Shown here: piece after piece, positions 9,832-29,993 of the stretch
Layout of the letters: every line of letters starts with the position of its first letter
Numbering within the stretch: the stretch's first letter is position 1
Source: Deltaproteobacteria bacterium HGW-Deltaproteobacteria-2
GTDB lineage: Bacteria > Desulfobacterota > Syntrophia > Syntrophales > Smithellaceae
Assembly (NCBI GenBank): GCA_002840505.1
Contig: PHBC01000002.1
Span: 517,544-581,543 of the forward strand
Length of the DNA stretch: 64,000 bases
Reading direction: 5' to 3'
The notes under the pieces: generated by a model
The model's input: only the letters and a program-made list of their open reading frames with translations
Told to the model about the DNA's origin: nothing
Database searches by the model: none
Translations under genes and position numbers: made by a program

Positions 9832-10407
9832 ATCGCCCCCTTTGGCTGCGATTAGTTCTGTATATCTTTACTTCTTTTTTCGATGCCATGATAAAACTAC
9901 ACTTTCAGTTTGTCAAGCATATTTTTTATAGTGTATCAATTTGTATAACAATTATCGTTTAATATCATGAATTACATAACATGTTGATTTACATTATGAA
10001 TACATTAAATTTCTAGAACTTAACATTAAGAGTAAAAAAGATATTTTTTTATAAATGAAGTAAACTGTATTACATTTCGATACAATATCGATAAAGAAAT
10101 CAATTACCATTAATCCATTTTGCTGCATCTTGAACCGAGTTTTGGTCAAACTTTACGCGGAAACGGACAAACGATCTTCAGACTGTAAAGTCCGCTTGGA
10201 AAAAGTCCTTATCATTACAACCAGTAAAATTGTAGCCAAGGATAATTTCTTAAAAGACGTGCAAATTAGACTTCCTTTTTTCATCCAAGAAGTGTATAAG
10301 TCTGAACGTTTGCACTATTTTTAGGGTACAGGACACTGTAATAAGAAGCCTGTAGCGCACAAATCAGAAGATTTAAATTACTTTCTTTGGGAAGAATAAA
10401 AGATTAC

Positions 10408-13574: not shown

Positions 13575-14263
13575 AAAATCATAAAGGCTATACATTAGTG
13601 GAAGTTTTAATTGCGCTTGCTTTGGGTGTTATAATCCTCTCCGCCATTTATTCATTGGTAAACATGGGGCAGAAGTCTACCTACAATATTGAGAGAAGAG
13701 TGGCGGCTCATCAGGATGTCCGTACCGCTCTGGAAATGATGTCCATGGAAATTCAGATGGCCTCTTACAATCCAAGACCCGACTATGAAGGCAGTAACTT
13801 CTGGGTATCTTCCGGGAGCTGCACTGCTTCCACTAATCAGATATATAAAGGTATTCAGACAGCGACAGATTCTTCCATCACCATCGAGATGAATCTCGAC
13901 GGAAGCGCCAGTATAGGCGATTCTATCAATGAGGTAATCAACTATACTTACGATTCTAACAACCAATACATCAGCCGTTCGACGAATTGTACAGGAGGTA
14001 ATCAGCCTTTTTTAGGAGATGTACCGGGCAATCTCCGGGCGGTTCGCGTAATTAATACCAGTGCAGTCCCGGTTTTCCGTTACTTTAATGCACTGGGAGC
14101 CGAAATAGCAGCCTCGTCATTACCGGCAGGAATTCCGAACGTTGCCAGAATAGACATTACTCTATGGGTAGAGACGGAAAATGCCGATTTGAATACAGGA
14201 CAAAGAAAAAAGTCATTTTATTCTACAAGTATAATTCCGAGGAACCATGTTATCATTAAATAA
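13565..14263 (+). CDS. pilW: Type IV minor pilin, PilW-like
   Basis: MKNHKG/YTLVEVLIALALGVIILSAIYSLV is a prepilin motif. The ~230-aa size and gene order fit PilW. Confidence 0.65.
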   Translation: MYMKNHKGYTLVEVLIALALGVIILSAIYSLVNMGQKSTYNIERRVAAHQDVRTALEMMSMEIQMASYNPRPDYEGSNFWVSSGSCTASTNQIYKGIQTATDSSITIEMNLDGSASIGDSINEVINYTYDSNNQYISRSTNCTGGNQPFLGDVPGNLRAVRVINTSAVPVFRYFNALGAEIAASSLPAGIPNVARIDITLWVETENADLNTGQRKKSFYSTSIIPRNHVIIK

Positions 14264-14732
14264 AATAAAAGACGTTTTAAATACGAAACATCAAGGTGGT
14301 TTTTCTCTAGTTGTAGCACTTCTTGCTATCTTGATCCTTATGGGATTAGGTTTTCTGGCCATTTCCGTCACGACAAATGATCTTCAGATTACCACCAGAA
14401 TCGTCGGAGAAAAGAAGGCATTGATTGCGGCTGAAGCAGGCATTAACATGCTTTCACATAGTTTCGCACCGGATACTTCATCTAGTGTAAGCGGACATGT
14501 GGTTGATTCCTCCGACCCGGCGTCAATTTATTCGATCAGTAATGCGACTCGTCCGACTTCTGGCGCTGATACACTGCCATTAAAAGGCTACGCAATTGGA
14601 GGAGGCCAGCAATGGGGACAGATGCTTTTTAATGTCCGGGTAACTGGTGAAAACACCTATTATGGAAGCCAGGTACAAATAGATGTGGGAATGGGCTACG
14701 GCCCTGTTGAGATAACCACCATGTTTAGATAA
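14247..14732 (+). CDS. pilX: PilX-like minor pilin / pilus assembly protein
   Basis: …HQGG/FSLVVALLAILILMGLGFLAISVTTNDLQITTR resembles the PilX N-terminal domain pattern. The gene precedes pilY1. Confidence 0.6.
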   Translation: MLSLNKIKDVLNTKHQGGFSLVVALLAILILMGLGFLAISVTTNDLQITTRIVGEKKALIAAEAGINMLSHSFAPDTSSSVSGHVVDSSDPASIYSISNATRPTSGADTLPLKGYAIGGGQQWGQMLFNVRVTGENTYYGSQVQIDVGMGYGPVEITTMFR

Positions 14733-14743
14733 GGGGGGCTTTT

Positions 14744-17700
14744 ATGTTAATAAAGAAAATAATAACAATCTTATTTATTATTGTCCTTTGTCTTTATGTC
14801 AATATATCCCACGCAGATGACACAGATGAAATGGCTCTATTTACCAGTTCGCTGTCTCCGGACACTCTTTTAATTCTGGATTTGAGCGGAAGTATGGAAT
14901 GGAACCCTGAAGGAGGCACCAATATATGGGGGAATTCCTCCTGTAGCGGAACATTTTACTCTTCACCAACCACCGGATATACAACCAATTGCAGCCGTCT
15001 GGCCATAGCCAAGCGGGCTATCTTCGGCATTTTGGACGACAATGGCGACAACAGCCTCACCGCCGCTGATGAAACCAGCCTGGGCGTAAGAATAGGATAT
15101 ATGAGATTTTATAACGGCAATGACACTGCCGGAGATTATCTAACCGGATACAATAGGCTTTCCAAGGCAATAGGAGTCACCTACAGACGTATTTATTGCA
15201 ATAGTTCATCCAGTTGTTCTATCAACAGCGTATGCAGAACATGTTCCTGCGGATCAACCTGCGCAGAGTATTCTCCCTGCGTCAACAGCGAATGTGCCTA
15301 CGGCGGCACTCCTCTTGCCGCATCCCTCAACGAAGCAAAACTTTATCTCGACGTTCATAAAACCGCGGACGGCGCTTCCGGGGCCTGCCGTCAGAAGTTT
15401 GCCATTGTAATCACAGACGGGGCAGACACTTATGCCTGTAGCGGTAACGGTACAGAAACACAAGCCGACATGTATAAAAGACGTCGAGAATCCGTTGCCA
15501 AAGCCAAGGCGCTGGCCGATGCCGGGTACCGACTTTTTGTCATCGGGTTCGGCAAGTCTATGCCTGATTATCTGGAAAATACTTTACACTGGATGGCCTA
15601 TTTTGGCGGAACGGATAACCCCCTGATCGCAAACACGGGTAGCACATCAGCCTACGTTCCTTCCGCAGTCACCTCCTGCGGGGCTTCGGAAACAACCGGC
15701 ACCTGTGACGGCAGCAGTACAAACTGCTTTGCCAATTCCAATGATCCTGGAAATACTGCTCTTTCCGGATACGCCTTTATTGCCACCGACGGCGATCAGA
15801 TTGCCACCCAGCTTAAATTGGCTTTCAGTATTATTCGTGAAGCCAATTACTCTTTTTCGCAAGCCTCCGTACAGTTAAACAGAACCGTTGATGAAAATTA
15901 CATTTATGAGGGCACCATCCAACCCATTTCCAACGATCCCTTCTGGTATGGTCATTTGAGAAAATACACTATCAATACAGACGGCAGCAGGGGAAGCGAA
16001 TTATGGGACGCGGGAACGGTTTTAATGAACACAAGTGACTCCGTCCGTAATATGAAAACGTACAAAACGGTTTCCGGAGCCGGTACAATAATCGATTTTA
16101 CAACATCAAACCTGACCAACGCTGATCTTGCCGTTACAACGGACGATCTTCGCAGTAAGGTGGTCGGCTTCTTCCGTGGTGAAAGCGCCTATAATCTGGA
16201 AAGCTGGAAGCTGGGTGACATTTTCCGCTCCAAACCGATTACAGTGGGCACACCTTCTTCTTTCTTTGAAGACGTCAGGGACACAAATCACGCTTTTGCC
16301 ACGCACAGGACAAATCATAAACGTGCCACCAATGATCCTGTTCTGGGTTATACGGGAAGAGTAGTTCTCGTCGGAGCCAATGACGGACAATTACATTCCT
16401 TCAAAACCAGCGATGGAACCGAGGCCTGGAGTTTCATTCCTCCCAATCTTTTATCACGTTTGAAGATGATCGCGCACAACACTCACCCGACAACCTTGAC
16501 ACATCAAAGCTACGTTGACGGGCCGGTAAGTGTCGCTGACGCGTGGGTTCCTGAAACAGCGAACAGTGGAACAGCAAAAAGCGCTTCCGACTGGCAAACA
16601 ATCCTGTTATTCGGAGAAGGACAAGGAGCCGGAACAAACCTCTGGAGTACCTCCACGAATTGCGATGCGGGATTCAATCAGACATATTCGACTACTTATC
16701 CATACTATTGCGGTTATCATTGTCTCAATGTAACAAATCCATTGGTCCCTACCTACTGCGGACCAACAGGCTCAACCACCACCAAGTGGTTACGTTTAGG
16801 ATTATCATCTTCCCAGACATATATAGGAGCTCCTTGGAGTTCGCCGATGATCGGCCGGGTTATGGTTAACGGCAATGAAAAATGGGTAGCCTTTATCGGC
16901 GGAGGATTTTCCTCACCCGGCGCGGCAAACAGCGGCAAAGGAATTTTTGTTTTTGATCTCGTCAATGGAAATCTACTGTGGAGTTATACCAAAGCAGACA
17001 ATTCTGATCTGGATAATCCCATGCCGGCAACCCCCTCTATTGTTGACATAGATAACGACGGATTTATTGATACGGCCTATTTAGGCGATACCGGCGGCAA
17101 TATGTGGCGTTTCAAATTTTGCAGGGCAACGAGCGGCACTTCCTGCGGTACTTCCAACTGGACAGGTGGACGTTTTTTCCAGGCGAACAGTTCTTCGGGG
17201 ATTCGTCCGATTTTCACCACCGCTTCGGTGGCCAAGGACGGCGTGGGTAATATTTGGGTCTATTGGGGAACGGGGGACAAACTTGATCCCACCAGCCCAA
17301 ACGCCCAGGAAAAATTTTACGCTTTAAAGGATACGGACTTTACCAGCACCCGCACCATCAGCGATATGCAGAATATTACCGATGAGGGAGGAACATATTC
17401 AGGTAGCGCTTATGGTTATTACATTAATCTTACCGGACAGGGAGAGAAGATACTTGCCGAACCGACGGTATTTGGTGGCGTTGTCTACTTTACCTCCTAC
17501 GTGCCGGCTTCGAGTAATGATCCCTGCGCTCAGGGTGGAACAGCAAAATTGTGGGGAATCAATTACACGACCGGCGCGGGAGCGCTTAATATTATAGGAT
17601 CTACGCCTTCAACTACGTTGCCCCGTTCAATGACCATAGGAACAGGTATCGCTTCCGCTCCTGTTGTTTCGATGAGACCTGGAACTGACGCTACACCTGA

Positions 17701-17824
17701 TCTCTATGTAACTACCAGCGGCGGTGGCGGCATAGACGGTCAGACTCAACGTGCCAATATAACTCCCCAAAGCCTGGTGAATAGGACAAACGTTCTTTTC
17801 TGGAGAGACACACGTATAGAATAG
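14744..17824 (+). CDS. pilY1: PilY1-like type IV pilus tip adhesin with N-terminal von Willebrand A domain
   Basis: 1026 aa with a signal peptide. It has a vWA MIDAS motif LLILDLSGSM (DxSxS). The C-terminal beta-propeller-like region carries the PilY1-type Ca-binding loop DIDNDGFIDTAYLGDTGGNMWRF. It is the last gene of the minor-pilin operon. Confidence 0.85.
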   Translation: MLIKKIITILFIIVLCLYVNISHADDTDEMALFTSSLSPDTLLILDLSGSMEWNPEGGTNIWGNSSCSGTFYSSPTTGYTTNCSRLAIAKRAIFGILDDNGDNSLTAADETSLGVRIGYMRFYNGNDTAGDYLTGYNRLSKAIGVTYRRIYCNSSSSCSINSVCRTCSCGSTCAEYSPCVNSECAYGGTPLAASLNEAKLYLDVHKTADGASGACRQKFAIVITDGADTYACSGNGTETQADMYKRRRESVAKAKALADAGYRLFVIGFGKSMPDYLENTLHWMAYFGGTDNPLIANTGSTSAYVPSAVTSCGASETTGTCDGSSTNCFANSNDPGNTALSGYAFIATDGDQIATQLKLAFSIIREANYSFSQASVQLNRTVDENYIYEGTIQPISNDPFWYGHLRKYTINTDGSRGSELWDAGTVLMNTSDSVRNMKTYKTVSGAGTIIDFTTSNLTNADLAVTTDDLRSKVVGFFRGESAYNLESWKLGDIFRSKPITVGTPSSFFEDVRDTNHAFATHRTNHKRATNDPVLGYTGRVVLVGANDGQLHSFKTSDGTEAWSFIPPNLLSRLKMIAHNTHPTTLTHQSYVDGPVSVADAWVPETANSGTAKSASDWQTILLFGEGQGAGTNLWSTSTNCDAGFNQTYSTTYPYYCGYHCLNVTNPLVPTYCGPTGSTTTKWLRLGLSSSQTYIGAPWSSPMIGRVMVNGNEKWVAFIGGGFSSPGAANSGKGIFVFDLVNGNLLWSYTKADNSDLDNPMPATPSIVDIDNDGFIDTAYLGDTGGNMWRFKFCRATSGTSCGTSNWTGGRFFQANSSSGIRPIFTTASVAKDGVGNIWVYWGTGDKLDPTSPNAQEKFYALKDTDFTSTRTISDMQNITDEGGTYSGSAYGYYINLTGQGEKILAEPTVFGGVVYFTSYVPASSNDPCAQGGTAKLWGINYTTGAGALNIIGSTPSTTLPRSMTIGTGIASAPVVSMRPGTDATPDLYVTTSGGGGIDGQTQRANITPQSLVNRTNVLFWRDTRIE

Positions 17825-18197: not shown

Positions 18198-19337
18198 ATG
18201 AAAACAAAAATTACTGATTTATTCGGAATTGAATATCCTATCATTCTGCCCGGTATGAGTTGGATCAGTGTACCGGAATTAGTCGCCGCGGTTTGCAACG
18301 CCGGAGGCATAGGTTATCTCGCCACCGGCCCTTTAAGTCCGGCCAAAACCAGAGAATCCATCAAACGAATTAAAAAGCTTACGAACAAACCTTTCGGAGT
18401 GGGTATCACCCTTTTGATGCCGGGAGCTCATGAAAACGCCATGGTCGCGATCGAAGAAAAAGTTCCCGTTCTCAACATATCCCTCGGCAAGGGTGAAGAT
18501 TTGATAAAAAAAATTCACGCTTACAACGGCAAAGTAATAGCCACGGTGACAACCGTTCAACACGCGCTTGCCGCTCAAAAATCAGGAGCGGATGCTTTGC
18601 AGGTAACCGGCTATGAAGCTGCGGCTCACGGCAGTCAGATTCCGACAATGGTTCTAGTCCCTGCTGTAGTAGATGCGGTTAAAATACCTGTGGTCGCGAT
18701 AGGCGGAATCGCTGACGGCCGGGGAATGGCTGCGGCTTTTGCCTTGGGTGCTGAAGGTGTTGGAATGGGCACGAGACTTTCCATCACGAAGGAAAGTCCT
18801 GTTCATGATTTCTGTAAGAAAAAGCAATTGGAAAGCACAATAGAAGACACAATATATTCCAATAGATTCGATGCTCTATTTTGCAGAGTTTTAAAAACCC
18901 CTTCCGCTGAAAAAGCGTTCAAACAAGGCCGCAATCTTCGCAAAGGTCTTAAGGCATCGTTCGCAATTGCTAAGGCAGTGGACATTCCATGGATGAAACT
19001 GGCAACGGCAGCTTCATCCGGCCCTAAAGGTGAAAAATCAGAGAGGCCTAAAGAATCCGGCGCAAATTCCGGTTCCGCATCAAAGCCAAAAGAAAAGAAA
19101 TCTTTAATGGACAAAATGCTTAAAGTCCCCAGAACGGGAATGAATCTCATGCATATGGCTCAAGCTTACGTCGATATCCAGCATGCGACGGAGACTGGCG
19201 ATCTGGATAAAGGATTTTATCTTTCAGGACAGGTCCAGGGCATAATCCATGATATACCGACAGTAGCAGAGGTGATTAATAGAACCGTGAAAGAATTTCT
19301 CAAAATTCAAGAAGAAGTTGCGGCAAAAACAAAATAG
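18198..19337 (+). CDS. NMO/FabK-family FMN oxidoreductase (nitronate monooxygenase / enoyl-ACP reductase II-like)
   Basis: LFGIEYPIILPGMSWISVPELVAAVCNAGGIGYLA and VVAIGGIADGRGMAAAFALGAEGVGMGTR match the 2-nitropropane-dioxygenase-like TIM-barrel family. An RBS AAAGGAG lies upstream. Confidence 0.8.
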   Translation: MKTKITDLFGIEYPIILPGMSWISVPELVAAVCNAGGIGYLATGPLSPAKTRESIKRIKKLTNKPFGVGITLLMPGAHENAMVAIEEKVPVLNISLGKGEDLIKKIHAYNGKVIATVTTVQHALAAQKSGADALQVTGYEAAAHGSQIPTMVLVPAVVDAVKIPVVAIGGIADGRGMAAAFALGAEGVGMGTRLSITKESPVHDFCKKKQLESTIEDTIYSNRFDALFCRVLKTPSAEKAFKQGRNLRKGLKASFAIAKAVDIPWMKLATAASSGPKGEKSERPKESGANSGSASKPKEKKSLMDKMLKVPRTGMNLMHMAQAYVDIQHATETGDLDKGFYLSGQVQGIIHDIPTVAEVINRTVKEFLKIQEEVAAKTK

Positions 19338-19340
19338 CAA

Positions 19341-20165
19341 TTATTTGACTGATTTTCTGCGCAACGCCCATTTGATGATTATATCAGATGAAAGTCGAAA
19401 CAGCGAAGGAGTCAGACGTTGGGTGAGCCAGAGCCATTTTGCCATGAAGCCGGGCACCATTATAAACTTCTTACGCGCAACGGCCAGCAGCATATGCGCG
19501 ACTACAGATTCTAGTTTTACCTGACCGGCCATATTTTTAAGTATGCGGCTTTCATAGGGCATGGTTTTCATTTCATCAAGCAGCATCGGCGTATCTATCT
19601 CAGGAGGACATACCAATGTTAGATAAATCCCCTTCTGCTTCAATTCTCCTCTCAAACACTCTGCTAAACCAACCAGCGCAAATTTTGAAGTGCCGTAAGC
19701 GGTATATCCACACATACCAACTAATCCGGCCATTGAGGAAATGATGACAATATGCGCTCCCTTTTTCATTGCGGGAAGAACTTCAGCAATCATATTACGA
19801 GTACCGTACAGGTTTATTTTCATGACAGCATCAAATGTGTCGTAAGAAATATTCCCCAAATAATCACAGCTGATAATTCCAGCACTATTAATTAGAATAT
19901 CAGGCGTTCCGAATTCTTTCACCGCCTGTGGGATTACATGGGACAGCTCGTCACTATTGGAAACGTCCACACTCAGACATCGGATAAACTGTGCGGAGGA
20001 TACTCTGAATTGCTCTATATTTCGGCGTGCATCTTCGAGCTTCGCGCTATTGCGTGCAATAATTGTAAGATTGGCATCATAGCTGAAAATTTTTCGCGCG
20101 AGTTCCAGGCCGATCCCGCTTGATCCTCCTGTAATGTAAACATGCTTGTTTTTATAATAGTTCAT
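19341..20165 (-). CDS. Short-chain dehydrogenase/reductase (3-ketodihydrosphingosine-reductase-like SDR)
   Basis: It has the TGxxxGxG motif (ITGGSSGIGLELA) and the catalytic YxxxK (YGTSK). The C-terminal segment is hydrophobic. Confidence 0.8.
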   Translation of the reverse strand: MNYYKNKHVYITGGSSGIGLELARKIFSYDANLTIIARNSAKLEDARRNIEQFRVSSAQFIRCLSVDVSNSDELSHVIPQAVKEFGTPDILINSAGIISCDYLGNISYDTFDAVMKINLYGTRNMIAEVLPAMKKGAHIVIISSMAGLVGMCGYTAYGTSKFALVGLAECLRGELKQKGIYLTLVCPPEIDTPMLLDEMKTMPYESRILKNMAGQVKLESVVAHMLLAVARKKFIMVPGFMAKWLWLTQRLTPSLFRLSSDIIIKWALRRKSVK

Positions 20166-20269: not shown

Positions 20270-23263
20270 TCATATTCCGTATTCCGCACGTTCGATAAGT
20301 TCAAGCTGCATATCACGATTTAGTGTTACAAAATAGGCGTTGTAACCCGATATCCGTACAAGAAGATTACGATAATTTTCCGGGTGCGCCATCGCATCTT
20401 TGAGCATATCTGATGTAACCACGTTTAGTTGTATCTGCATGCCGCCCAGTTCGAAATAAGTCTTAACGTAAGAGAACATATCATCCACTGTCTTTTCGCG
20501 TGAGTCGCCCGCTGAGGGTACCACCTTGACATTGAAGGCAATATTATTGTTCAGGTTTAGAGGATCAAGTTTAGCCACATCACGTATATTGTCGAGCAGG
20601 CTCTTTGATGCAAACGGCTGCGGTGTAAGGCCAGGTGTAAAGGGCTTGCCGGCAAGCCTTCCAGAAGGTAGAGCGCCCGTGAGCGTTCCAAAAGCCACGT
20701 GGGTGGACATTGACCAGAATCCGGTGGTGTATCTTCCGCCGCGGTAGTGCGGCAAACCACCATAATAATCATGCGCCCATTTTGCGATGCGATTGGCCAT
20801 AGCTACGGCTTCTTCACTTCCGGAACCAAACAGGGGTACTTTTTTTTGCACCAGCGCCAGCAGAGCCGGGTCGTTTTCAAAGTTGGTGTCTACGGCTCTT
20901 TTCAAGTCCATAAAAGGAATTTTCTCATCATCATAGACGAGTTTTTTGATTACCATAAGCGAGTCAGTAACATCCGCAAGACCGATTATAGCAGTGCCGG
21001 AACTGTTGTATTTCGCGCCGCCTTTGGTGACATCTAATCCTTTTCGAATAGAATCATCAATAAGTGACGAAAGAAGCGGTGTTGGTCGCAGATACTGGTG
21101 AGCCTCAGCCAGCATGTGGTTATATTCAATGGATTGGTCGATAATGAATTTGAATTGCTCCGTGAACGCGTCGAAAAAATCATCGAATGTTTTAAAATCA
21201 CCGCGTGCTACAACGCCGGTATCGGGACCCAATTTCCAGTCGGTAAGCGGGTGCCTGCCGTTATTCATGGCCATTTCCAGAGCGGCAACCATATTCATCA
21301 TCTGCATGTTGGTGTGGCCAATGTGTTTGCCGGATAAAGTAGGTTCAACACATCCCGTGGCCGACCAGTTACGGATATCCTGAATATCGTAGTTCATATT
21401 AGAAAGAGAAGAAATAATTGCGGCGTCGTTGTGCATGGAAGGCGTGGCCGCGGTAATAAGGTTAACCTCGCAAAGCCGTTTCAGGTAAGTATCACTATTT
21501 ACACCAGGCATAAAACGTGCGTTTACATTGGGGTCACGGATGGAGAGTATTTCGGTAACCTTAAGAAAAATATACGTCATATCATTTACGGCATCTTTGC
21601 CCTCGGGAGTGATACCACCTAAAGTTATGGCCTGATCTGAAGAACTGCCGCCGAAATAGAAATTGGCCAGGTCTGGTGTAAGCGGGAAATGGTCGGTACA
21701 ACGCATATAGAAGTGGCCAATAAGTTCCAACGCGTGATGTATATACGCTTCACGCGCGCTTTTCGATTTTATTTTTTCCATGTCCGCAACAAAATATGGT
21801 TGAAGCCACTGATCTAGTCTTCCCAGCGAAAGCCCCGCGTTCATGCTTTCCATATGGAGCCCCACCCATGTAATCCACATAGAATTAACTGCCTCTTCAA
21901 GAGTGCGGGCTGGGTTTTCCACTACGTGCTCGCATATTGATGCAAGGGTTTCGAGTTCTGCCCTGCGTCCCGGATCCTTTTCCGCCGCGGCATCTTTTAG
22001 AGCCTGACGCGAAAGGTTTTTGGAATAGGCCGTAAGTCCTTCCAGGCAAAGTACCATTGATTCAAGTGTCGCCTTTCTCTCCGGGTTTGTCTCTCTTTCT
22101 AATTCTGTTTTAATTTCCGCAATTATTCCCGAAGTGCCCAGGCGTAATATCTTGGGGAAATCAGGAATAGTGTGGGATATCGTTGCTACCTTCCAATTAA
22201 AATAAAGCGCAAATCGTTCATCAATTTGCTGGCACAAAGGGTTGTTATATTTTCCCCGCACCCACTCGCGAAAATTTCGTTTTATCCAGTAGGGGAATAT
22301 ATCATTATGAAGGAGCTCGCGAGTCTCTTCGGAAATGTCGAAGGGATTGTACGTACGGTACGGCATGGTGATGAGCTCATTCCATATGATAACTGCGCTC
22401 CCCTCAGGGTATAAGGGACATCCTATCTTTTTACTCGTGGTGGTCCCGGCAATAAGTGAATCATCGCCAATTATTGGCTTACGGTTTTCCATTAGATATT
22501 TGTATGCCAAAGCTTTGCGCATGACCGGAATATAAGGATGACCGTTATTGTCAATTTCAAAACCGTTTTTTCTGTGCCACTCTGTTACAAGTCGGGGAAT
22601 TTCCGGACACACCTCCGGTTTTACGGTGAGGTGAATGTCGAGAATTTTTTTGAGACGCGGAAAACTATCGAGGCTGTAGTCCGGAAGATAGGGATCCTCG
22701 AGATATTGTACGCCCGCATCTATTTTCACACATTTGAGTCGTAACTTTCTTCGCGAGGAAAGTTCATCGCTCAAATCTTTGCGGGCATCAGGAGCCTTTT
22801 TCAGCAAGCTTTTTTGGGCATTATTCCTCTCTTTTTCCATGAGCTTTATTTGTTTTTTGTTGATCAACAGGGAAAGAAGAAAAGCGAAGAGGTTAAGATA
22901 GGTAATGCTTCCATCAACCCGTGCCTCATTCTTGAGGATCATGTAAATCTGATCAGTGGATGTACCACCAAGTAGTTTCCTCACTGCGGTGTCGGTGCGA
23001 AATCTTATCACTGCATCGGCTCTGTTGGGCATGCCGCGTACAATGGACACTGCGCCTTCCCGAAAAACGATACCCGAGAATACCGAACCGCTTTCGGTAC
23101 GGATACCGATAGCGAAATTCAGCGGACCATCCGATGTTATAAGATATCTTTTCAGTGCGGACCGATAATTGAAGTTCGCGGCCATTACCTTCAGAAGCCC
23201 ATGCAGTATCAATCCTGTAGGAGACATTTTTGCTTTATCAGCAATTTCAGTATGAATTAGCAT
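20270..23263 (-). CDS. Glycyl radical enzyme (PFL2/glycerol-dehydratase-like class) with N-terminal SCP2-like extension
   Basis: 997 aa. The C-terminal glycyl radical motif is LVRISGYNAYF (RVxG[FWY]-type). The thiyl loop WSATGCVEPTLSG has Cys-x-Glu as in the dehydratase/lyase class. The first ~135 aa (…AVIRFRTDTAVRKLLGGTSTDQIYMILKNEARVDGSITYLNLFAFLL) resemble an SCP2 sterol-carrier fold. Confidence 0.85.
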   Translation of the reverse strand: MLIHTEIADKAKMSPTGLILHGLLKVMAANFNYRSALKRYLITSDGPLNFAIGIRTESGSVFSGIVFREGAVSIVRGMPNRADAVIRFRTDTAVRKLLGGTSTDQIYMILKNEARVDGSITYLNLFAFLLSLLINKKQIKLMEKERNNAQKSLLKKAPDARKDLSDELSSRRKLRLKCVKIDAGVQYLEDPYLPDYSLDSFPRLKKILDIHLTVKPEVCPEIPRLVTEWHRKNGFEIDNNGHPYIPVMRKALAYKYLMENRKPIIGDDSLIAGTTTSKKIGCPLYPEGSAVIIWNELITMPYRTYNPFDISEETRELLHNDIFPYWIKRNFREWVRGKYNNPLCQQIDERFALYFNWKVATISHTIPDFPKILRLGTSGIIAEIKTELERETNPERKATLESMVLCLEGLTAYSKNLSRQALKDAAAEKDPGRRAELETLASICEHVVENPARTLEEAVNSMWITWVGLHMESMNAGLSLGRLDQWLQPYFVADMEKIKSKSAREAYIHHALELIGHFYMRCTDHFPLTPDLANFYFGGSSSDQAITLGGITPEGKDAVNDMTYIFLKVTEILSIRDPNVNARFMPGVNSDTYLKRLCEVNLITAATPSMHNDAAIISSLSNMNYDIQDIRNWSATGCVEPTLSGKHIGHTNMQMMNMVAALEMAMNNGRHPLTDWKLGPDTGVVARGDFKTFDDFFDAFTEQFKFIIDQSIEYNHMLAEAHQYLRPTPLLSSLIDDSIRKGLDVTKGGAKYNSSGTAIIGLADVTDSLMVIKKLVYDDEKIPFMDLKRAVDTNFENDPALLALVQKKVPLFGSGSEEAVAMANRIAKWAHDYYGGLPHYRGGRYTTGFWSMSTHVAFGTLTGALPSGRLAGKPFTPGLTPQPFASKSLLDNIRDVAKLDPLNLNNNIAFNVKVVPSAGDSREKTVDDMFSYVKTYFELGGMQIQLNVVTSDMLKDAMAHPENYRNLLVRISGYNAYFVTLNRDMQLELIERAEYGI

Positions 23264-23392
23264 GACAGGACATCCCTTTACTGCAATATTTCTAAGAAAA
23301 CGACACCTTTGTGTTAATCCAAAGTTAGTAGTGAGGGTTTCCGTTCGAACTAGCCAAAGAATATATACTAATCGGTGTTAACGGAGATACGA

Positions 23393-23830
23393 CTATTTCA
23401 ATTGGACAGTCACTACCTTGTTCAGAACAGCCTGAGCCTTGATAAGCTTTCTATACTTTGTATCGATCTTATTGAGATTCTTGGACAGAAGAGCCTTGAG
23501 CAAGTCCCCCTCTACCTCGGCAACACCCAGCCGTTCGTAATAATCAAGCATTTCCTTCATATGCGCCAGAACAATCATACCTGTAAGGATGGGATGATTG
23601 TTCGTCACGTTCGCGTCATCGAACATTGTACCGTGCTCAAGTTCCACTTCCAATCCCATACGAAATTCTTCGAGAGGAATGGGCATCTTTTTAACATTGA
23701 CAATTTTGAGGATGACACCGGCTTCTTTTGCTGTTACTTTCGGCTCTTTAATTTTAGTCCAATCCCTCAAACCCAATTCTTTACAAACCCTTTTCACCTC
23801 GCTGACGGTTACATACTGCGGAATCTTCAT
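23393..23830 (-). CDS. Hypothetical protein (conserved-looking ELEHG … HMKEMLDYYERL motifs)
   Basis: A 145-aa ORF with plausible coding character, co-directional between an SDR and the glycyl radical enzyme. I cannot assign a family with confidence. Confidence 0.5.
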   Translation of the reverse strand: MKIPQYVTVSEVKRVCKELGLRDWTKIKEPKVTAKEAGVILKIVNVKKMPIPLEEFRMGLEVELEHGTMFDDANVTNNHPILTGMIVLAHMKEMLDYYERLGVAEVEGDLLKALLSKNLNKIDTKYRKLIKAQAVLNKVVTVQLK

Positions 23831-23870: not shown

Positions 23871-24656
23871 TTACTGAGCCGACAATCCGCCATCCACGTG
23901 GAAAATACTACCAGTGATGTAGTCCGAGGCTTTGGATGCCAAAAAGACGGTCAGGCCTTTGATCTCGTCCTCATCGCCGTACATTTTGAGTGGAATAGCA
24001 GCCACGGTAAGGTCAAGAATCTGTTTATTCTCCGGCTTGAAGATATAGGACATCATATCGGTCTTAAAAAATCCCGGAGCAACGCAATTAACATAAATTT
24101 TGTAACGGGCTAATTTTATAGCCAGCGTCTTAGTTAAACCCTCTACTGCAAACTTGGAAGGATTATAGGCTATAGCCGGATGTTCTTCTTCATTAGAACC
24201 TCGTGAGCCATAGATTGATGAAATATTAATCATCTTGCCTCCACCCTTTTCTTTCATGATTCGAGCCACCTGCTGGGACAGGATCCACACGCCCTTGACA
24301 TTCACGTCGAATATTTTTTCCCATTTATCCAATGGGAAATCCAGAGTTGGTGCTCCCCAGGTGAGTCCGGCGTTATTGACCAATATATCAATGGTACCGA
24401 ATTTATCCATTGTGGTTTTGACCAGGTTGTCAATATCTTCCTTTTGGGCCATATCACATTTAACAGCAAGAGACTTAACTCCCAGTTTTTCCAATTCCTT
24501 TGTTTCTTTTTCGCAGTTTTCCAGCTTGCGCGAGGCAATCACCACATTCGATCCCGCCTCAGCCAACCCCGTAGCCATGAATTTGCCAATACCTCTACCA
24601 CCACCGGTAACTAAGGAAACCTTACCTTTTAAATCAAACAAATCTTTTACATTCAT
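23871..24656 (-). CDS. Short-chain dehydrogenase/reductase (FabG / gluconate-5-dehydrogenase-like)
   Basis: VSLVTGGGRGIGKFMA (TGxxxGxG), NNAG, and the catalytic YNPSK. Confidence 0.85.
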   Translation of the reverse strand: MNVKDLFDLKGKVSLVTGGGRGIGKFMATGLAEAGSNVVIASRKLENCEKETKELEKLGVKSLAVKCDMAQKEDIDNLVKTTMDKFGTIDILVNNAGLTWGAPTLDFPLDKWEKIFDVNVKGVWILSQQVARIMKEKGGGKMINISSIYGSRGSNEEEHPAIAYNPSKFAVEGLTKTLAIKLARYKIYVNCVAPGFFKTDMMSYIFKPENKQILDLTVAAIPLKMYGDEDEIKGLTVFLASKASDYITGSIFHVDGGLSAQ

Positions 24657-24797
24657 TACAAGCTCCTTAAGTAATGTAGTTATTTACGTTGAAAGTATAT
24701 GAAGAATGATCTTTTGTGTCAATAAAATATAGATGATTAAAAATCTCAAAAATAAAGAAAATGGATTACAGCATGCACCATAACCCCTTGAAATAAA

Positions 24798-25122: not shown

Positions 25123-26316
25123 TTAAAGCATTTCAAATATAGCGGCAGCTCCCATTCCACCACCGATACACATGGAGACAATGCCGCGTTTTGCTTTTCG
25201 GCGTTGTAGTTCATGGAGCAACTGAGCAGTCAGTTTGGCACCCGTGCAGCCCAGTGGATGACCCAGGGCAATAGCGCCACCGTTAGGGTTAATGTCACCT
25301 GCATTCAGACGGTCTTCAATTCCGATCTTGCGGATACAGTAAAGCGCCTGTGATGCAAAGGCCTCGTTGATTTCAAACACATCAATATCCTTCGTTGTCA
25401 AACCAGCCATTTTTAGAACCTTCGGAATAGCATATGCCGGACCGACACCCATTTCTTCAGGTTTGCAACCGGCTACAGCGTAATACGCCAACTTGGCAAT
25501 CGGCTTCACACCTATAGCCTTGGCCTTTTCTGCCGTCATGACTAGAGTAAATGCGGCACCATCAGTCATCTGAGAAGAATTGGCCGCAGTGCAGTTTCCG
25601 CCCTGTTTGAATGGTGATTTCAATTTAGCCATATCCGCGATGCTGACCGGCCATCTTACACCATCATCAGTATCAAATACGAATTCCGTACGGACGCGTT
25701 TTCCATCCTTATCTTTCTTATATTTGAAGGCTTTGATGGGAATAATCTCATCCTTAAATTTACCGGCCTGGATGGCTTCATAAGCTTTACGGTTACTTTC
25801 CACACCGAACTTATCCAGATCTTCGCGGGAAACATTGTAATTCATCGCAACATTTTCCGCGGTGTTTCCCATGTTCATGTATACATTGGGCATAGTGGCG
25901 TAATCCCAGTCAGGATTGGGGCGGAAGATACCGCCGCCCATAGGGATATGGGTCATGGACTCGCAACCACCGGCGATAATTACTTCTGACCAGCCGGCGC
26001 GAATCTTCGCCGTAGCGTCAGCAATTGACTGAACACCTGATGAGCAGAAACGGTTAAGGGTCATACCGGATACCGGCTCGGGCAAACCGGCGCCGACAGC
26101 CAATACTTTACCGAAATTCATTCCTGCTTCCGCTTCAGGAAACGCACAACCGACAATTAGATCATCAATATCATTGGGATCAAGCTGGGGAACTTTCGCC
26201 AGCAAACCTTTAATAACCTGAACACCATAGACGTCGGCACGGGTATCGGCCAAACCGCCTCTTTTATATCTTCCACCGGCACTCCTTACGGATGCGACAA
26301 TGACAGCTTCACTCAT
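25123..26316 (-). CDS. Acetyl-CoA C-acyltransferase (3-ketoacyl-CoA thiolase)
   Basis: The active-site Cys context is NRFCSSGVQSI. The C-terminal motifs are GHPLGCTGAKL and CIGGGMGAAAIFE. Confidence 0.9.
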   Translation of the reverse strand: MSEAVIVASVRSAGGRYKRGGLADTRADVYGVQVIKGLLAKVPQLDPNDIDDLIVGCAFPEAEAGMNFGKVLAVGAGLPEPVSGMTLNRFCSSGVQSIADATAKIRAGWSEVIIAGGCESMTHIPMGGGIFRPNPDWDYATMPNVYMNMGNTAENVAMNYNVSREDLDKFGVESNRKAYEAIQAGKFKDEIIPIKAFKYKKDKDGKRVRTEFVFDTDDGVRWPVSIADMAKLKSPFKQGGNCTAANSSQMTDGAAFTLVMTAEKAKAIGVKPIAKLAYYAVAGCKPEEMGVGPAYAIPKVLKMAGLTTKDIDVFEINEAFASQALYCIRKIGIEDRLNAGDINPNGGAIALGHPLGCTGAKLTAQLLHELQRRKAKRGIVSMCIGGGMGAAAIFEML

Positions 26317-26403: not shown

Positions 26404-28830
26404 TTAGTTGCGCAGGGGTTTGCCAGTTGATAAAATGGCACTTATTCTATCTTGCGTCTTCTGTTCACCGCAGAGGCTCATGAAAGCTTCTCTTTCCAGA
26501 TCCAGAATCTCCTGTTCCGTCACAAAAGTTCCTTCCGCGCAGGTTCCTCCACCTAGTACATGAGCAATCTTCATAGCAATGTGAGCATCATATTCAGAGG
26601 CGTATTTACCGGCCTTCATGTTACTGATGATAGCTCCAGCCACGCCCCGCAGATTTTCTCCCATGACGGGAATAAGAGCTGGTTTCGGCGGTTTATAGAA
26701 CTTGGACATACCCAGAACAATCTGTTTGGCTTCGAAAATCTGCATGTCTCGGCTCATGTTAATCATGCAGGTCTTACGGATAAAACCTAAATCCTGAGCT
26801 TCCTGAGCGCTTGTGGCAACCTTGGCAGTGGCGATATTTTCAAAAATCTTGCCAAAATGATACTGCATATTCAATCCGGACTCTACAACACCAGCCGGAA
26901 TTCCTTCCGTCATACGTAAGGCCATTTCCTTACAACCGCCGCCGGCTGGAATAACTCCAACACCGACTTCGACAAGACCCATGTATGTTTCACCGTTAGC
27001 TAGACAATAGTCGCCATGCATAGCGATTTCACAACCACCGCCTAGAGCCATGCCTGCTGGAGCCGTAACAACGGGCTTGGGCAGATATTTCATCTTCATA
27101 TTGGCATTCTGCAATCCTGCAACCATTTTCTCCAATTCAACCCATTGTTTTTCAGTAATGGCACACAATACAGCAAAGATGTCGGCACCGGCAGAGAACA
27201 TACGCTGATCATGGTTGGCAACGACCATACCAAGGAAATCTTTATTCACGATATCGCAACTCTCCGATATCATCTGAATCATATCGGCATTAACAGAATT
27301 CATCTTGGTATGGAATTCCAGACAGGCGACACCGTCACCAATGTCCACAAGTGTTGCAGCCGCATTTTCTTTAACGGTTTTCTTTCTTTCCTTGAGACCG
27401 GACAGTACGATGATTTTAGGATTCTCAGCCATCTTCACATAGCCCTTCTTCTTGAAATCATAGTAGGACTTGACGCCTTTACTATCGACCTTGTAGAAAG
27501 ATGTGCATTTCTTCTTCAGCATTTCTTCGATCTTGGCGGGAACTTTTTTGCCGAGTTTCTTCATTACTTCAACGGCTTCTTTAACGCCTACAGCATCCCA
27601 TGATTCAAAAGGACCAAGCTGTTGATTGTAGCCCCACTTCATAGCATTGTCTATCTCAACGATTGTATCGCATATTTCGGGAATGCGGTTGGTAGCGTAA
27701 ATGAAGTTGTTGCACATATATTCGCGCAGATAATCGCCGGCGGCATCCTGTCCGTTGAAAGCTACTTTCATACTAACTGCAACACCGGAATCGGCCCACT
27801 TCTTTGCTTCGGAAATAGACGCGAATTTTGGTTTCTGGGCTACGGCATATTCCATGGTCTTCCAGTTAATGGCGTATTTAACGTTCTTGCCGTTTTCGTC
27901 CTTTACTTTCTTGTAATAACCACCTTTGGTTTTGTTACCAAGCCACTTGTTGGCTATCATTTTTTTCGCAAATTCCGTGGGGGCAAAGGTATCACGGCAT
28001 TCATCGTCGGGAACAGCGTCATAGAGGTTCTGCGCAACATGAGTACCGATATCGAGACCGACCAGATCTATTGTTCCGAAGATTGCTGTGCCGGGACGGC
28101 CGACTGCCTTACCGACAATGGCGTCAACTTCTTCAATACTCATACCTTTTTCCATCATGACCTTACCGGCATTACACAGATCATAGACACCGACACGGTT
28201 GCCGACGAAATTGGGAACATCCTTGCATATAACAACGCCTTTACCGAGGACTTCCTCGCTGAATTTTACCATATAATCGACGACTGCCTTATCCGTATCC
28301 GCACCGGGAATGATCTCCATTAACTTCATGTACCGGGGCGGATTAAAGAAATGGGTTCCCAAAAAATGCTTCTTCAGGTTAGCGCTGAATTTAGCGGAAA
28401 TGTCTTTGATGGGAAGACCGGAGGTATTTGTGGAAACTATACATGTCGGTTTAACAACTTTTTCCACCTTGGCAAAAAGTTCCTGTTTGATTTTTAGGTT
28501 TTCGACAACAACTTCACAAACCCAGTCACAGTCGGCCAGCAATTTTAAATCGTCTTCAAAATTACCTATTGTAACCATTGAAGCATTGCTTTTCGCATAA
28601 AAACTAGCCGGTTTCGACTTGGTGACCCCAGCCAATCCGTTTGCAGCAAACCGGTTGCGCCACGCCGGGCTTTTCTCTGTTAATCCTTTCTTCTTATCGT
28701 CCTCGGTAAGTTCAAAAGGAATGATATCCAGCAAATAGCACTCAATGCCGGCATTCGTTAAATGGGCTGCGATACTCGCACCCATAACTCCCGCGCCTAA
28801 AACGGCAGCTTTCTTGATCTCCAATGACAT
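26404..28830 (-). CDS. Bifunctional 3-hydroxyacyl-CoA dehydrogenase / enoyl-CoA hydratase (FadN-type domain order)
   Basis: 808 aa. The N-terminal NAD-binding motif is AAVLGAGVMGASIAAH. The C-terminal crotonase fold shows FSAGADI and ALGGGCEIAMH. Confidence 0.9.
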   Translation of the reverse strand: MSLEIKKAAVLGAGVMGASIAAHLTNAGIECYLLDIIPFELTEDDKKKGLTEKSPAWRNRFAANGLAGVTKSKPASFYAKSNASMVTIGNFEDDLKLLADCDWVCEVVVENLKIKQELFAKVEKVVKPTCIVSTNTSGLPIKDISAKFSANLKKHFLGTHFFNPPRYMKLMEIIPGADTDKAVVDYMVKFSEEVLGKGVVICKDVPNFVGNRVGVYDLCNAGKVMMEKGMSIEEVDAIVGKAVGRPGTAIFGTIDLVGLDIGTHVAQNLYDAVPDDECRDTFAPTEFAKKMIANKWLGNKTKGGYYKKVKDENGKNVKYAINWKTMEYAVAQKPKFASISEAKKWADSGVAVSMKVAFNGQDAAGDYLREYMCNNFIYATNRIPEICDTIVEIDNAMKWGYNQQLGPFESWDAVGVKEAVEVMKKLGKKVPAKIEEMLKKKCTSFYKVDSKGVKSYYDFKKKGYVKMAENPKIIVLSGLKERKKTVKENAAATLVDIGDGVACLEFHTKMNSVNADMIQMISESCDIVNKDFLGMVVANHDQRMFSAGADIFAVLCAITEKQWVELEKMVAGLQNANMKMKYLPKPVVTAPAGMALGGGCEIAMHGDYCLANGETYMGLVEVGVGVIPAGGGCKEMALRMTEGIPAGVVESGLNMQYHFGKIFENIATAKVATSAQEAQDLGFIRKTCMINMSRDMQIFEAKQIVLGMSKFYKPPKPALIPVMGENLRGVAGAIISNMKAGKYASEYDAHIAMKIAHVLGGGTCAEGTFVTEQEILDLEREAFMSLCGEQKTQDRISAILSTGKPLRN

Positions 28831-28886: not shown

Positions 28887-29516
28887 TCACGCTTTTTTTA
28901 AGCCCTTGATAAATATCTCCAATGCTAATTTAATTGTGGAATGAATTCTTTCTCTTCGTTTTTCCTGCGCCCCCGAAAAAATATACAGGGAGATAATTCC
29001 ATTAAGCAAACCCCAGATCGCATTTCGATTTTGCTTTAAATTAATATCTGCGGAAAATTCTTTTGACGCTGCTTCCTGAAATATTTTTCCAATAACATCT
29101 ATTGACCTGGCATTTGCGTTAATAATTTGAGAGTTAAGCTCCTCTGTTAAATTTATTTTAGCTGGTTGCAGCATGTAGGTCATAAGTATCCTGAATAATT
29201 CTGGCTCATTGAGGAAAAAATCAACATAGATACAGGAGAATTCAAACAGCAAGTCATCCACCGATTTTTTCTCATCAAATAAAACAGAAACATGCTGAGT
29301 AAAGTTATCAATATCATTCAGTAGAATTTGTGCGTAAATTTCTTCTTTACTATTAAAGTAAAGATAAATTGATCCTTTACCTAATTCGGAGGATTTGGCA
29401 ATTTCATCTACGGTAACATTATTAAAACCTTTTTTAAAGAACAGAGTTCGCGCTGATTTGAGAATTAGTTTCTTACGGTTATCTTTCTCTTTTCCTCTAC
29501 GTTCCTGAAGTCCCAA
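28887..29516 (-). CDS. TetR/AcrR-family transcriptional regulator
   Basis: The HTH region is ILKSARTLFFKKGFNNVTVDEIAKSSELGKGSIYLYFNSKEEIY. The track ORF extends to a GTG at 29588 through a palindromic operator-like site. An in-frame TTG at 29516 with the RBS-like AGGAAGAAGG upstream is preferred. Confidence 0.8.
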   Translation of the reverse strand: MGLQERRGKEKDNRKKLILKSARTLFFKKGFNNVTVDEIAKSSELGKGSIYLYFNSKEEIYAQILLNDIDNFTQHVSVLFDEKKSVDDLLFEFSCIYVDFFLNEPELFRILMTYMLQPAKINLTEELNSQIINANARSIDVIGKIFQEAASKEFSADINLKQNRNAIWGLLNGIISLYIFSGAQEKRRERIHSTIKLALEIFIKGLKKA

Positions 29517-29560
29517 AGCAACCTTCTTCCTGCCTGAAATACGCGCATATTTAAAACAAC

Positions 29561-29585
29561 GGTCAATATCTGACCAGCGGTCAGA
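29561..29585. promoter_or_regulatory. Candidate TetR operator (alternating GGTCA/TGACC half-sites)
   Basis: GGTCAatatcTGACCagcGGTCAGA includes the perfect inverted repeat TCTGACC-AGC-GGTCAGA (29569-29585). It lies immediately upstream of the preferred TetR start. Confidence 0.4.
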
Positions 29586-29993
29586 CACAAGTAAAACAAT
29601 AAACCCTAAAAGTCAAGAAAAATAAAATAATTTTTAAGATAAAAATAGTGAAATTTTTTTCTATAATTATAAGGTTAATTTTACAAGTATTTGTATTTAT
29701 GAAACAAAACATAATATTAACGGATAAACGATCGCGCCCAATGGCCGAATCAGATTTATCTTTATGCTAAAATAATTGGTGTTTATATTTCTCAACTATT
29801 ACGAACATCTTGGCATTATTATTCATTGCATATTCATAAATCCCCCCATGTTGTAATACCTATATTTCATTGACATACAAAACGCTTCTTTATATATTCC
29901 CTCTCTAAAAAGAAATTTATTATCAAATTCTTATGTCGGTTCAATAAATTTGCTTTTTCAAACTGCCTCATTCAGAAAGGTACGTGCCGAAAG

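Follow-up and report, generated by a model that had tools for sequence, protein, structure and literature searches.

What reaction is catalysed by a glycyl radical enzyme (GRE) that carries a lipid-carrier-like domain at its N terminus, and what does that domain hold? The question is raised by a 997-aa protein encoded in a 64,000-nt stretch of contig PHBC01000002.1 from Deltaproteobacteria bacterium HGW-Deltaproteobacteria-2 (the whole stretch hereafter being the window), which we call SCP2-GRE after its predicted sterol-carrier-protein-2 (SCP2) fold and its GRE barrel. Our analysis indicates that the gene most likely encodes a functional enzyme from a large glycyl radical 1,2-eliminase family, and we give a probability of roughly one half to a picture in which the SCP2 domain holds an amphipathic hydroxylated substrate whose C-O bond the enzyme cleaves. 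The gene and the parts of its product lie on the minus strand, which the earlier note on this DNA, made by a model from the letters alone, had left unstated:

20270..23263 (-): SCP2-GRE gene, 997 aa, a single ATG-initiated open reading frame (ORF; translation, Pfam)
22859..23224 (-): predicted SCP2-fold domain, residues ~14-135 (AlphaFold2, AF2, and Foldseek)
22664..22858 (-): charged helical linker plus a conserved DPGVxYLxDPYL segment, residues 136-200 (AF2, alignment)
20687..22654 (-): ten-stranded barrel of the pyruvate formate-lyase (PFL)-like type, residues 204-859 (Pfam PF02901, E=9e-163)
22172..22174 (-): His364, aligned with His164 of glycerol dehydratase (GD) and with the His of propanediol dehydratase (PD), HypD and YbiW; Asp in CutC
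21632..21652 (-): GGSSSDQ loop, residues 538-544, a family-specific pocket feature (alignments)
21341..21355 (-): Cys loop GCVEP, residues 637-641, with the thiyl-radical Cys638 and the general base Glu640 (sequence, alignments)
20327..20638 (-): glycyl radical domain (Gly_radical), residues 876-979 (Pfam PF01228, E=2e-23)

Both motifs that had marked the protein as a GRE hold up. The earlier note had pointed to a C-terminal glycyl radical motif, and a coordinate check places VRISGYNAYF at residues 969-978 (window 20330-20359), with Gly973 as the radical glycine inside the Gly_radical domain. It had also assigned the GCVEP loop, by its Cys-x-Glu arrangement, to the dehydratase/lyase class and not to PFL with its Cys-Cys pair, and motif and family-profile scores agree. 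The features by which the superfamily is recognised are thus present, namely a Gly loop RISGY with Gly973 (pattern RVxG[FWY]) and a barrel with a central Cys loop, and the full-length AF2 model is of high quality (pTM 0.90, mean pLDDT 86.8). Misalignment of either motif, named in advance as grounds for abandoning the assignment, was looked for and not found: the motifs align with those of known GREs, and Cys638, Glu640 and the RISGYNA loop are kept in 121/121 sequences. Of the profile searches proposed at the time, those for the PFL-like and Gly_radical domains succeeded, and the one for SCP2 returned no model match.

Comparison with characterised GREs points to the eliminases. Against PDB sequences, the best scores are to Archaeoglobus fulgidus PFL2 (373 bits), PD (369), GD (367), HypD (354) and CutC (352), with lower values for IslA (243), MasD (209), benzylsuccinate synthase (BSS, 156) and PFL (93, the weakest). 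Foldseek superposes the full-length model on GD, PD, HypD, CutC and A. fulgidus PFL2 with template-modelling (TM) scores of 0.89-0.93 over ~815 columns, versus only 0.79-0.83 for fumarate-adding enzymes; no PDB match covers the first 200 residues. The catalytic domain is roughly equidistant from GD and PD, HypD and CutC, so the tight clustering with a single small-substrate enzyme that had been sought as a refutation is not seen in the bit scores. All NCBIfam scores lie far under their cutoffs (bits/cutoff): TIGR01774 (PFL2-3) 504/678, HypD NF043068 415/1100, CutC TIGR04394 379/1050, NF048009 371/1000, NF048011 361/1000, TIGR01255 (PFL) 119/994 and PRK09983 (YbiW/PflD) 369/1109.

The residues that carry the chemistry are conserved, and those around them are distinctive. 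Cys-x-Glu on the Cys loop defines the GRE 1,2-eliminases and isomerases, with the Glu serving as base, and His164 of GD is the proposed acid that protonates the leaving hydroxyl (PMC13450708, the latter in section 5.6.1). Its counterpart His364 is invariant in 121/121 sequences. In the GGSSSDQ loop, S540-S542 are found in 120-121/121 sequences, and position 543, where GD has Tyr339 and PD, CutC and HypD have Phe, is Asp in 110 and Asn in 10. Elsewhere in the pocket, Ala476 and Gly477 replace GD His281 and Ser282 (HypD Asp278 aligning with Ala476), Asn652 replaces GD Asp447, and Trp850 replaces GD Tyr640. Because Cys-x-Glu and a His of the GD His164 type are common to the C-O-cleaving enzymes GD, PD, HypD and YbiW, we read the protein as eliminase-type, and from the same comparison we infer C-O chemistry. 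We have good confidence that SCP2-GRE is an active GRE of this kind.

Known identities were tried and set aside. For GD or PD, TIGR01774 stays below cutoff and the His164 position is kept with the other diol-binding residues replaced; for CutC, TIGR04394 is below cutoff, Asp216 becomes His364 and Phe becomes Asp543; for HypD, NF043068 is below cutoff and Asp278 becomes Ala476. The C-S lyases and sulfopropanediol dehydratases (IslA, HpsG, HpfG) fail on NF048009 and NF048011 and on the 243 bits to IslA, and the X-succinate synthases, BSS and (1-methylalkyl)succinate synthase (MASS), on low bit scores, the TM of 0.79-0.83 and the lack of a recurrent small-subunit cluster in the neighbourhood census described below.

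The closest characterised enzymes nonetheless illuminate the family. GD (C. butyricum 1r8w) and PD (R. inulinivorans 5i2a/5i2g; 9rco) are the best structural matches (TM 0.89-0.92, ~30 % identity) and have in common with it the Gly loop, Cys-x-Glu, the aligned His and an adjacent ~300-aa activase with ferredoxin-like clusters; the SCP2-GRE family differs in its 200-residue SCP2-plus-linker extension, in RISGYNA instead of RVAGYSA, and in having no microcompartment context. CutC (TM 0.92) is alike in that the ES-x-N-A-GLSLGRLDQ segment of SCP2-GRE is close to its ...TGLSLGRVDQ and Thr651 aligns with its Thr502; some CutC proteins also bear a long N-terminal extension (9f3w, 1150 aa), which is not of SCP2 fold. 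The YbiW/PflD isomerases share the Cys-x-Glu motif and the conserved His (YbiW is 27 % identical) and set a precedent for GRE cleavage of an ether C-O bond beside a hydroxylated carbon, in 1,5-anhydro-hexitol-6-phosphates (PMC13450708); YbiW differs in its GD-like ESNGHS loop, its pocket Tyr, its sugar-phosphate substrates and the lack of an SCP2 domain. A. fulgidus PFL2 (2f3o), the top PDB sequence match (TM 0.92), has Asn at the Asp543 position and differs in length (776 aa), in lacking an SCP2 domain, in its hyperthermophilic archaeal host and in its loop (ENYEQAISMGR versus ESMNAGLSLGR); its function is debated between GD and MASS (PMC13450708).

What, then, is the N-terminal domain? The earlier note had likened the first ~135 residues to SCP2, and the predicted structure bears this out where sequence profiles stay silent, so that a domain invisible to Pfam was recognised by eye and then confirmed through structure prediction. 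An AF2 model of residues 1-200 has a core pLDDT of ~91 (residues 20-90) and the topology aa-bbbb-aa-b-a, that is, helix, helix, four strands, two helices, strand and a long helix; the five-stranded sheet, the packing of N-terminal helices and the closing C-terminal helix that characterise the SCP2 fold are all present. When this model was searched against the PDB with Foldseek, the top 46 consecutive matches were all SCP2-fold proteins, led by UbiJ-SCP2 (6h6p, E=7e-7, TM 0.70) and including A. fulgidus AF1534, yeast, insect and human SCP2, and the corresponding domains of two alkylsulfatases, SdsA1 and Pisa1. Together these matches span E values from 7e-7 to 5e-3 and TM up to 0.70, at an identity of just 9-20 %. 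On predicted structure, we therefore hold an SCP2 fold of the N-terminal domain to be highly probable. The fold is common to UbiJ-SCP2, SdsA1/Pisa1, the SCP2-like domain of MFE-2 and AF1534 (Foldseek); unlike those modules, the domain in SCP2-GRE is N-terminal and joined to a radical enzyme through a helical linker of ~65 residues.

The charged linker noted after this domain was likewise located, as the string KERNNAQKSLLKKAPDARKDLSDELSSRRKLRLK (KERNNAQ...RKLRLK), and is predicted to be helical, with helices at residues 120-156 and 162-173 in the AF2 models. Residues 170-200 reach a pLDDT of ~50 when modelled alone versus 80-93 in the full-length model, in which the SCP2 domain itself has 89-94, and within the conserved segment D182, V185, P191, Y192 and L193 are almost invariant across the family alignment. 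This gain of confidence in context suggests rigid packing of domain and linker against the barrel.

The extension belongs to one family of enzymes. It is gap-free in an alignment of 120 homologues (40-55 % identity), and residues 1-185, run with phmmer against 1.84 billion representatives, gave 112 matches, essentially all of them N-termini or fragments of the same GRE family; the exceptions are a spurious eukaryotic repeat protein and P0130, a possible chimera. Stand-alone or differently fused copies were sought in this search and none other than these two came up, which marks the domain, at the level of sequence, as a signature of the SCP2-GRE family. P0130 (371 aa) joins the family's SCP2-like N-terminus to the apparent N-terminus of a polyprenyl-phosphate sugar transferase; it may be an artefact of assembly, or the domain may truly have been re-used with a second lipid-dependent enzyme.

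SCP2-GRE is not an oddity but a member of a very large, strongly conserved family that crosses phyla. A protein search returned 986 matches, the best 120 of which are ~1000 aa long with 65-99 % identity and full-length coverage; when one genome per species was scanned, the family was present in at least 593 genomes, and ~1000-aa orthologues with the same N-terminal domain occur in anaerobes at 58-90 % identity. Hosts include Smithella and other Syntrophales; Desulfobacterales, among them the cultured Desulfatibacillum alkenivorans DSM 16219 and a Desulfosudis oleivorans metagenome-assembled genome (MAG); Leptospirales and other Spirochaetota MAGs; Actinomycetota (Anoxymicrobiaceae, Geothermincolia); and Acidobacteriota, Chloroflexota, SAR324 and Myxococcota MAGs, MAG taxonomy being throughout that of the deposited labels. 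Active-site positions show no or next to no variation across 121 sequences drawn from several phyla, which implies a single conserved substrate unlike those of characterised GREs. Divergent branches with changed pockets also exist (P0146, P0174). Two paralogues of 984-1007 aa (P0178, P0221) have the catalytic Cys and Glu replaced, and P0178 the radical Gly as well; from these replacements they are likely to be catalytically dead pseudo-enzymes that retain the SCP2 domain.

Within the clade of the window the enzyme appears to be in use. The window shares 82-87 % DNA identity and full synteny with L005 (SCVW01000025.1, labelled Smithella sp. SDB_sulfate1) and a JGI contig (L003), and the identical window protein occurs on 14 contigs, one of 708 kb. 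Weak matches to LIC_/LA_ families had hinted at Leptospira as the source, a reading set aside for a Smithella-like Syntrophales origin in view of the identity and synteny with SCVW01000025.1, itself a MAG with an unverified label. Across three species-level genomes the ratio of nonsynonymous to synonymous substitution rates (dN/dS) of the GRE is 0.044 and 0.063 overall, 0.03-0.04 for the barrel and ~0.09 for the SCP2 domain, figures that are approximate because dS, about 1, is near saturation. Such purifying selection, together with intact catalytic residues, indicates that the enzyme of this clade is functional.

The earlier note had remarked that the window encodes no activating enzyme, although activases are usually adjacent. 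Its absence from the 64 kb is real: the sole CxxxCxxC in any reading frame sits in a radical S-adenosylmethionine (SAM) protein that is not an activase,

10387-12201 (+): 604-aa B12-binding (class B-like) radical SAM protein, the window's only CxxxCxxC

and tblastn of the window with three cognate activases gave a best E of 0.06. In a few other loci, weakly related B12-binding radical SAM genes stand no more than ~10 genes away from the GRE, probably by chance or synteny. The peculiarity is confined, however, to the clade of the window, as became clear from a census of 82 distinct loci (crude gene calls; some activases lay behind antisense shadow ORFs and were recovered by tblastn). A classical ~305-aa activase with radical SAM and ferredoxin-like clusters stands on the same strand, within ~3 kb up- or downstream of the GRE, in 64/82 loci, and a TetR gene stands upstream in 35, the usual family cassette being TetR-activase-GRE. 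D. alkenivorans DSM 16219 has a complete TetR-activase-GRE-SDR cassette (SDR, short-chain dehydrogenase/reductase), which makes the family experimentally tractable in a cultured organism. Its GRE lies at 10001-12973 of L079 (NZ_FQZU01000035.1), with an activase gene of ~306 aa upstream. Three loci (L048, L051, L062) have two GRE genes in tandem; the first reads SCP2-GRE, activase, an 839-aa GRE and a second activase.

The linked activase was lost in a single clade, made up of the window, L003 and L005, an ordinary matter of one unlinked gene; a few other well-flanked loci likewise have none beside the GRE. No activase remnants were found in the window or in L003. The cassette TetR is gone from the window and kept in L003 (9244-9951), a 92 %-identical syntenic relative, where a 235-aa TetR sits between DUF5661 and the GRE. 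The gap after the GRE is 620 bp in L003 versus 104 bp in the window, where DUF5661 and the GRE are 129 bp apart (23264-23392), differences that indicate recent indels around the gene. GREs are unable to activate themselves, and activase specificity follows the Gly-loop sequence (PMC13450708, section 2.5); the family's RISGYNA loop is invariant and differs from the RVAGYSA of known eliminases. Because the enzyme is in use, a cognate activase is expected elsewhere in the genome, acting in trans. One activase homologue, P0270, proved to belong to another canonical cassette.

Which neighbours travel with the gene? The earlier note had listed two SDRs, a small conserved protein, an FMN oxidoreductase and beta-oxidation genes, all of which are real:

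18198-19337 (+): NMO/FabK-like FMN enzyme, divergent (Pfam/NCBIfam)
19341..20165 (-): downstream classical SDR, 274 aa, the recurrent GRE partner (Pfam adh_short)
23393..23830 (-): DUF5661 small protein, between SDR and GRE (Pfam PF18905)
23871..24656 (-): upstream classical SDR, 261 aa, FabG/gluconate-5-dehydrogenase-like, first gene of the probable operon (Pfam/NCBIfam)
24694..24722 (-): promoter-like TTGACA-17-TATACT (11/12) ahead of SDR-DUF5661-GRE-SDR, a consensus match whose regional counts are not above chance
24763-24786: terminator-like hairpin after fadA, a consensus match whose regional counts are not above chance
25123-26316 (-): thiolase, fadA (Pfam/NCBIfam)
26404-28830 (-): FadB-like bifunctional enzyme (Pfam/NCBIfam)
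28887-29588 (-): TetR/FadR-like regulator (Pfam/NCBIfam)

A gap of 466 bp follows fadA, and gaps of 40, 129 and 104 bp lie inside the SDR-DUF5661-GRE-SDR unit; with the promoter and terminator matches, this spacing suggests an operon separate from the beta-oxidation genes. Family-level meaning was retained only by the SDR/alcohol dehydrogenase (ADH) type. Genes of FadA/FadB type adjoin the GRE in no locus but those of the window, L003 and L005, DUF5661 is beside it only in the window and L003 among the 82 loci and probably stands outside the GRE system, and the upstream SDR is kept (93 %) solely in the window clade. Being confined to that clade, the beta-oxidation genes, NMO and DUF5661 are unusable as family-level evidence, and they were dropped as family context together with the homologue of AGPS (alkyl-dihydroxyacetone-phosphate synthase, alkyl-DHAP synthase) farther along the window.

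When the orthologous loci were clustered and their Pfam content counted, only NAD(P)-dependent alcohol/carbonyl oxidoreductases recurred besides activase and TetR. Orthologues of the downstream SDR (41-49 % identity) lie directly downstream of the GRE on the same strand in five loci (L044, L079, L038, L020, L073), which include both Desulfatibacillum loci, Desulfosudis and a Leptospira-like MAG; extended SDRs (Epimerase/3beta-HSD/NAD_binding_4) also occur near the GRE, and other lineages have a Zn-ADH or Fe-ADH as the partner. An SDR/ADH-type enzyme is found within 5 kb of the GRE in 16/40 well-flanked non-redundant loci, and the tally for the 32 fully flanked loci is 11 close to the GRE versus 2 in an equally long zone at 5-10 kb. 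An extended and a classical SDR are apparently fused in one 614-aa ORF (a crude call) in the Desulfosudis oleivorans MAG (L038, 12906-14747) and stand in tandem in L073 (12950-15165), which suggests two coupled redox steps. Lipid- or aldehyde-handling neighbours are sporadic: aldehyde:ferredoxin oxidoreductase in 6 loci, acyl-CoA synthetase in 5, GMC oxidoreductase in 5, phospholipase A1 in both Desulfatibacillum loci, an EEP phosphoesterase in 2, and the beta-oxidation genes of the window clade.

How might these parts work together? SCP2 domains of SdsA1, UbiJ and MFE-2 bind polyprenyl, alkyl or acyl chains and pass them to a catalytic partner. By analogy, the SCP2 domain of SCP2-GRE would bind the hydrophobic part of an amphipathic substrate, gripping its tail and offering the polar head to the barrel. 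A dedicated radical SAM activase, encoded elsewhere in the organism of the window, would place the radical on Gly973, from where it would move to Cys638, and the thiyl would take a hydrogen from a hydroxyl-bearing carbon. Glu640 would deprotonate the hydroxyl while His364 protonated the leaving group on the neighbouring carbon, most likely an oxygen-linked one, hydroxyl or alkoxide, and C-O cleavage would yield an aldehyde or ketone. The adjacent NAD(P)-dependent SDR/ADH could then reduce or oxidise the product or, alternatively, make the alcohol substrate, as SarD does for IslA. Long-chain vicinal diols or polyols, alkyl-glycerol ethers and lipids of that sort would be candidate substrates. 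We regard a lipid-like substrate as an even call, suggested by SCP2-fused enzymes elsewhere and by the sporadic lipid and aldehyde neighbours. Tentatively, SCP2-GRE could go further and be the first lipid-directed GRE, an O2-independent C-O lyase or dehydratase whose SCP2 domain extracts an amphipathic lipid for the barrel to cleave beside a hydroxylated head-group carbon, with 1-O-alkylglycerol ether lipids, long-chain vicinal diols and sphingoid-base-derived polyols as candidates.

Several observations weigh against a C-O-cleaving eliminase with an SCP2-held amphipathic substrate. The SCP2 assignment depends on predicted structure because the sequence signature is absent: Pfam and NCBIfam searches of residues 1-200 gave zero SCP2 matches, in Pfam even at E<=10, a 35-sequence family profile matched zero SCP2 proteins among PDB sequences, and neither search places the N-terminus in the SCP2 sequence family (PF02036 and relatives). 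The pocket contains the polar residues Ser540-542, Asp543 and Asn652, and the replacement of GD Asp447 and His281/Ser282 means that a simple 1,2-diol dehydratase is not implied. An activase in trans was sought indirectly, and none of the best 120 activase homologues could be placed on the 708-kb parent contig. Apart from TetR, activase and SDR, the gene context is heterogeneous, and the census could therefore assign no substrate; a small-amine theme of permease, class-III aminotransferase, Zn-ADH and thiamine-pyrophosphate (TPP) enzyme runs through L001, L088 and Actinomycetota loci.

That theme is the root of the alternative we take most seriously while still thinking it rather doubtful, in which an imported amine is converted by permease, class-III aminotransferase and ADH/SDR into a small polar alcohol for the GRE, on the model of taurine to sulfoacetaldehyde to isethionate to IslA, and the SCP2 fold has a role other than substrate binding, possibly in oligomerisation, membrane tethering, regulation or activase docking. 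Its gene context is concrete: AA_permease, Aminotran_3, Zn-ADH and a TPP enzyme stand co-oriented directly upstream of the GRE and activase in L001, the GRE and activase are followed by Zn-ADH, AsnC and Aminotran_3 in L088, and Aminotran_3 recurs in about 5 loci. All characterised Cys-x-Glu GREs use small polar molecules (PMC13450708), and several of the invariant pocket residues are themselves polar. Yet the aminotransferase/permease context is confined to a minority of loci, the window not among them, other loci have lipid- or aldehyde-handling genes instead, and an SCP2 fold that is under purifying selection (dN/dS ~0.09) and present in every family member is most simply explained as a ligand-binding module.

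The remaining rivals fare worse. A fumarate-adding, hydrocarbon-activating enzyme of the alkylsuccinate-synthase type, as has been proposed for A. fulgidus PFL2, with SCP2 delivering alkanes or alkenes, would suit the alkane/alkene degraders that carry the family (Desulfatibacillum alkenivorans, Desulfosudis oleivorans, Smithella) and the position of PFL2, debated between GD and MASS, as top PDB sequence match. We consider it improbable: MasD and BSS reach 209 and 156 bits versus about 350-370 for eliminases, the TM scores differ likewise (0.79-0.83 versus 0.89-0.93), the Cys-x-Glu and His signature of eliminases and isomerases is invariant, small-subunit genes do not recur in the neighbourhood census, and the family is abundant in Spirochaetota and Actinomycetota too. 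Could the protein of the window lineage instead be a relic, or re-purposed as a non-radical protein, after the loss of activase and TetR? No activase is encoded in the 64 kb or beside the gene in the syntenic L003 and L005, and dead paralogues (P0178, P0221) show that such proteins exist, but every catalytic residue is intact, dN/dS is 0.04-0.06 at a dS of about 1 across three species-level genomes, the identical protein occurs on 14 contigs, and other well-flanked loci also lack a linked activase; we give this very little credence. The database names 'formate acetyltransferase' and 'pyruvate formate lyase family protein' in the source annotations would make it a pyruvate formate-lyase (formate C-acetyltransferase), an identity with next to no chance of being correct given a single Cys followed by x-Glu where PFL has a Cys-Cys pair, a TIGR01255 score of less than an eighth of its cutoff and the weakest of the PDB matches.

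Other parts of the window carry features of their own. A putative bacterial ether-lipid block at 54614-60570 (+) comprises a GntR/FadR_C regulator, a GlpD-like glycerol-3-phosphate dehydrogenase, the AGPS homologue (57109-58800; 240 bits to Dictyostelium AGPS 2uuu versus 83 to glycolate oxidase) and an FGGY kinase; it lies 34 kb from the GRE and is near the GRE in no other locus. The gene at 53098-54321 (+) encodes a Peptidase_U32 protein of the same family as the O2-independent hydroxylases UbiU/UbiV, partners of the SCP2 protein UbiT; its presence in the window is probably a coincidence, though UbiJ-SCP2 is the best structural match of the SCP2-GRE N-terminus. At 12689-17824 (+), type IV pilin-like proteins bearing N-terminal methylation motifs (one has a GspH domain) precede a 1026-aa PilY1-domain protein, a cluster whose synteny extends to L003 and L005. 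At 1706-7710 (-), two SCPU (spore coat protein U) proteins, of which one has He_PIG/PKD Ig domains, lie beside a 982-aa ORF without an NCBIfam match, possibly as a fibre locus of chaperone-usher-like type; a PilZ protein is encoded at 8105-8593.

In SCP2-GRE, the radical scaffold and the probable chemistry are known, and the domain architecture and the pocket are new. A full-text literature search found no description of an SCP2-GRE fusion, its sole match being an unrelated fungal genomics paper, and a June 2026 review that lists the characterised Cys-x-Glu GREs (GD, PD, HpfG, HypD, HpyG, HpzG, CutC, IslA/IseG, HpsG, HplG, YbiW, PflD) describes whole GRE clades as still unannotated, with no mention of an SCP2 fusion or of a lipid substrate (PMC13450708); this agrees with the earlier note, which was aware of no characterised GRE with such a fusion. 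Eliminases and isomerases of the GRE superfamily characterised to mid-2026 act on small water-soluble substrates, namely glycerol, propanediol, choline, hydroxyprolines, sulfonates and anhydro-sugar phosphates (PMC13450708). Two literature leads were discarded, a limonene GRE that proved to be a Bss-type enzyme (PMC12583861) and a benzene cluster in whose report GREs are mentioned just in passing (PMC13101534); the D. alkenivorans lipidome paper held no expression data.

An invariant pocket and a fused lipid-carrier fold in ~600 or more species of sediment, subsurface and digester anaerobes indicate a widespread radical reaction in anoxic carbon cycling. If the enzyme is indeed directed at lipids, anaerobes would gain a route to degrade or remodel them, including non-hydrolysable ether lipids, whose aerobic cleavage needs O2, and the products would be fatty alcohols or aldehydes for SDR/ADH, aldehyde oxidoreductase, acyl-CoA synthetase and beta-oxidation. 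A lipid substrate would also be a new substrate class for GRE chemistry, and it could explain the O2-free turnover of recalcitrant ether lipids and long-chain diols, which serve as sedimentary biomarkers.

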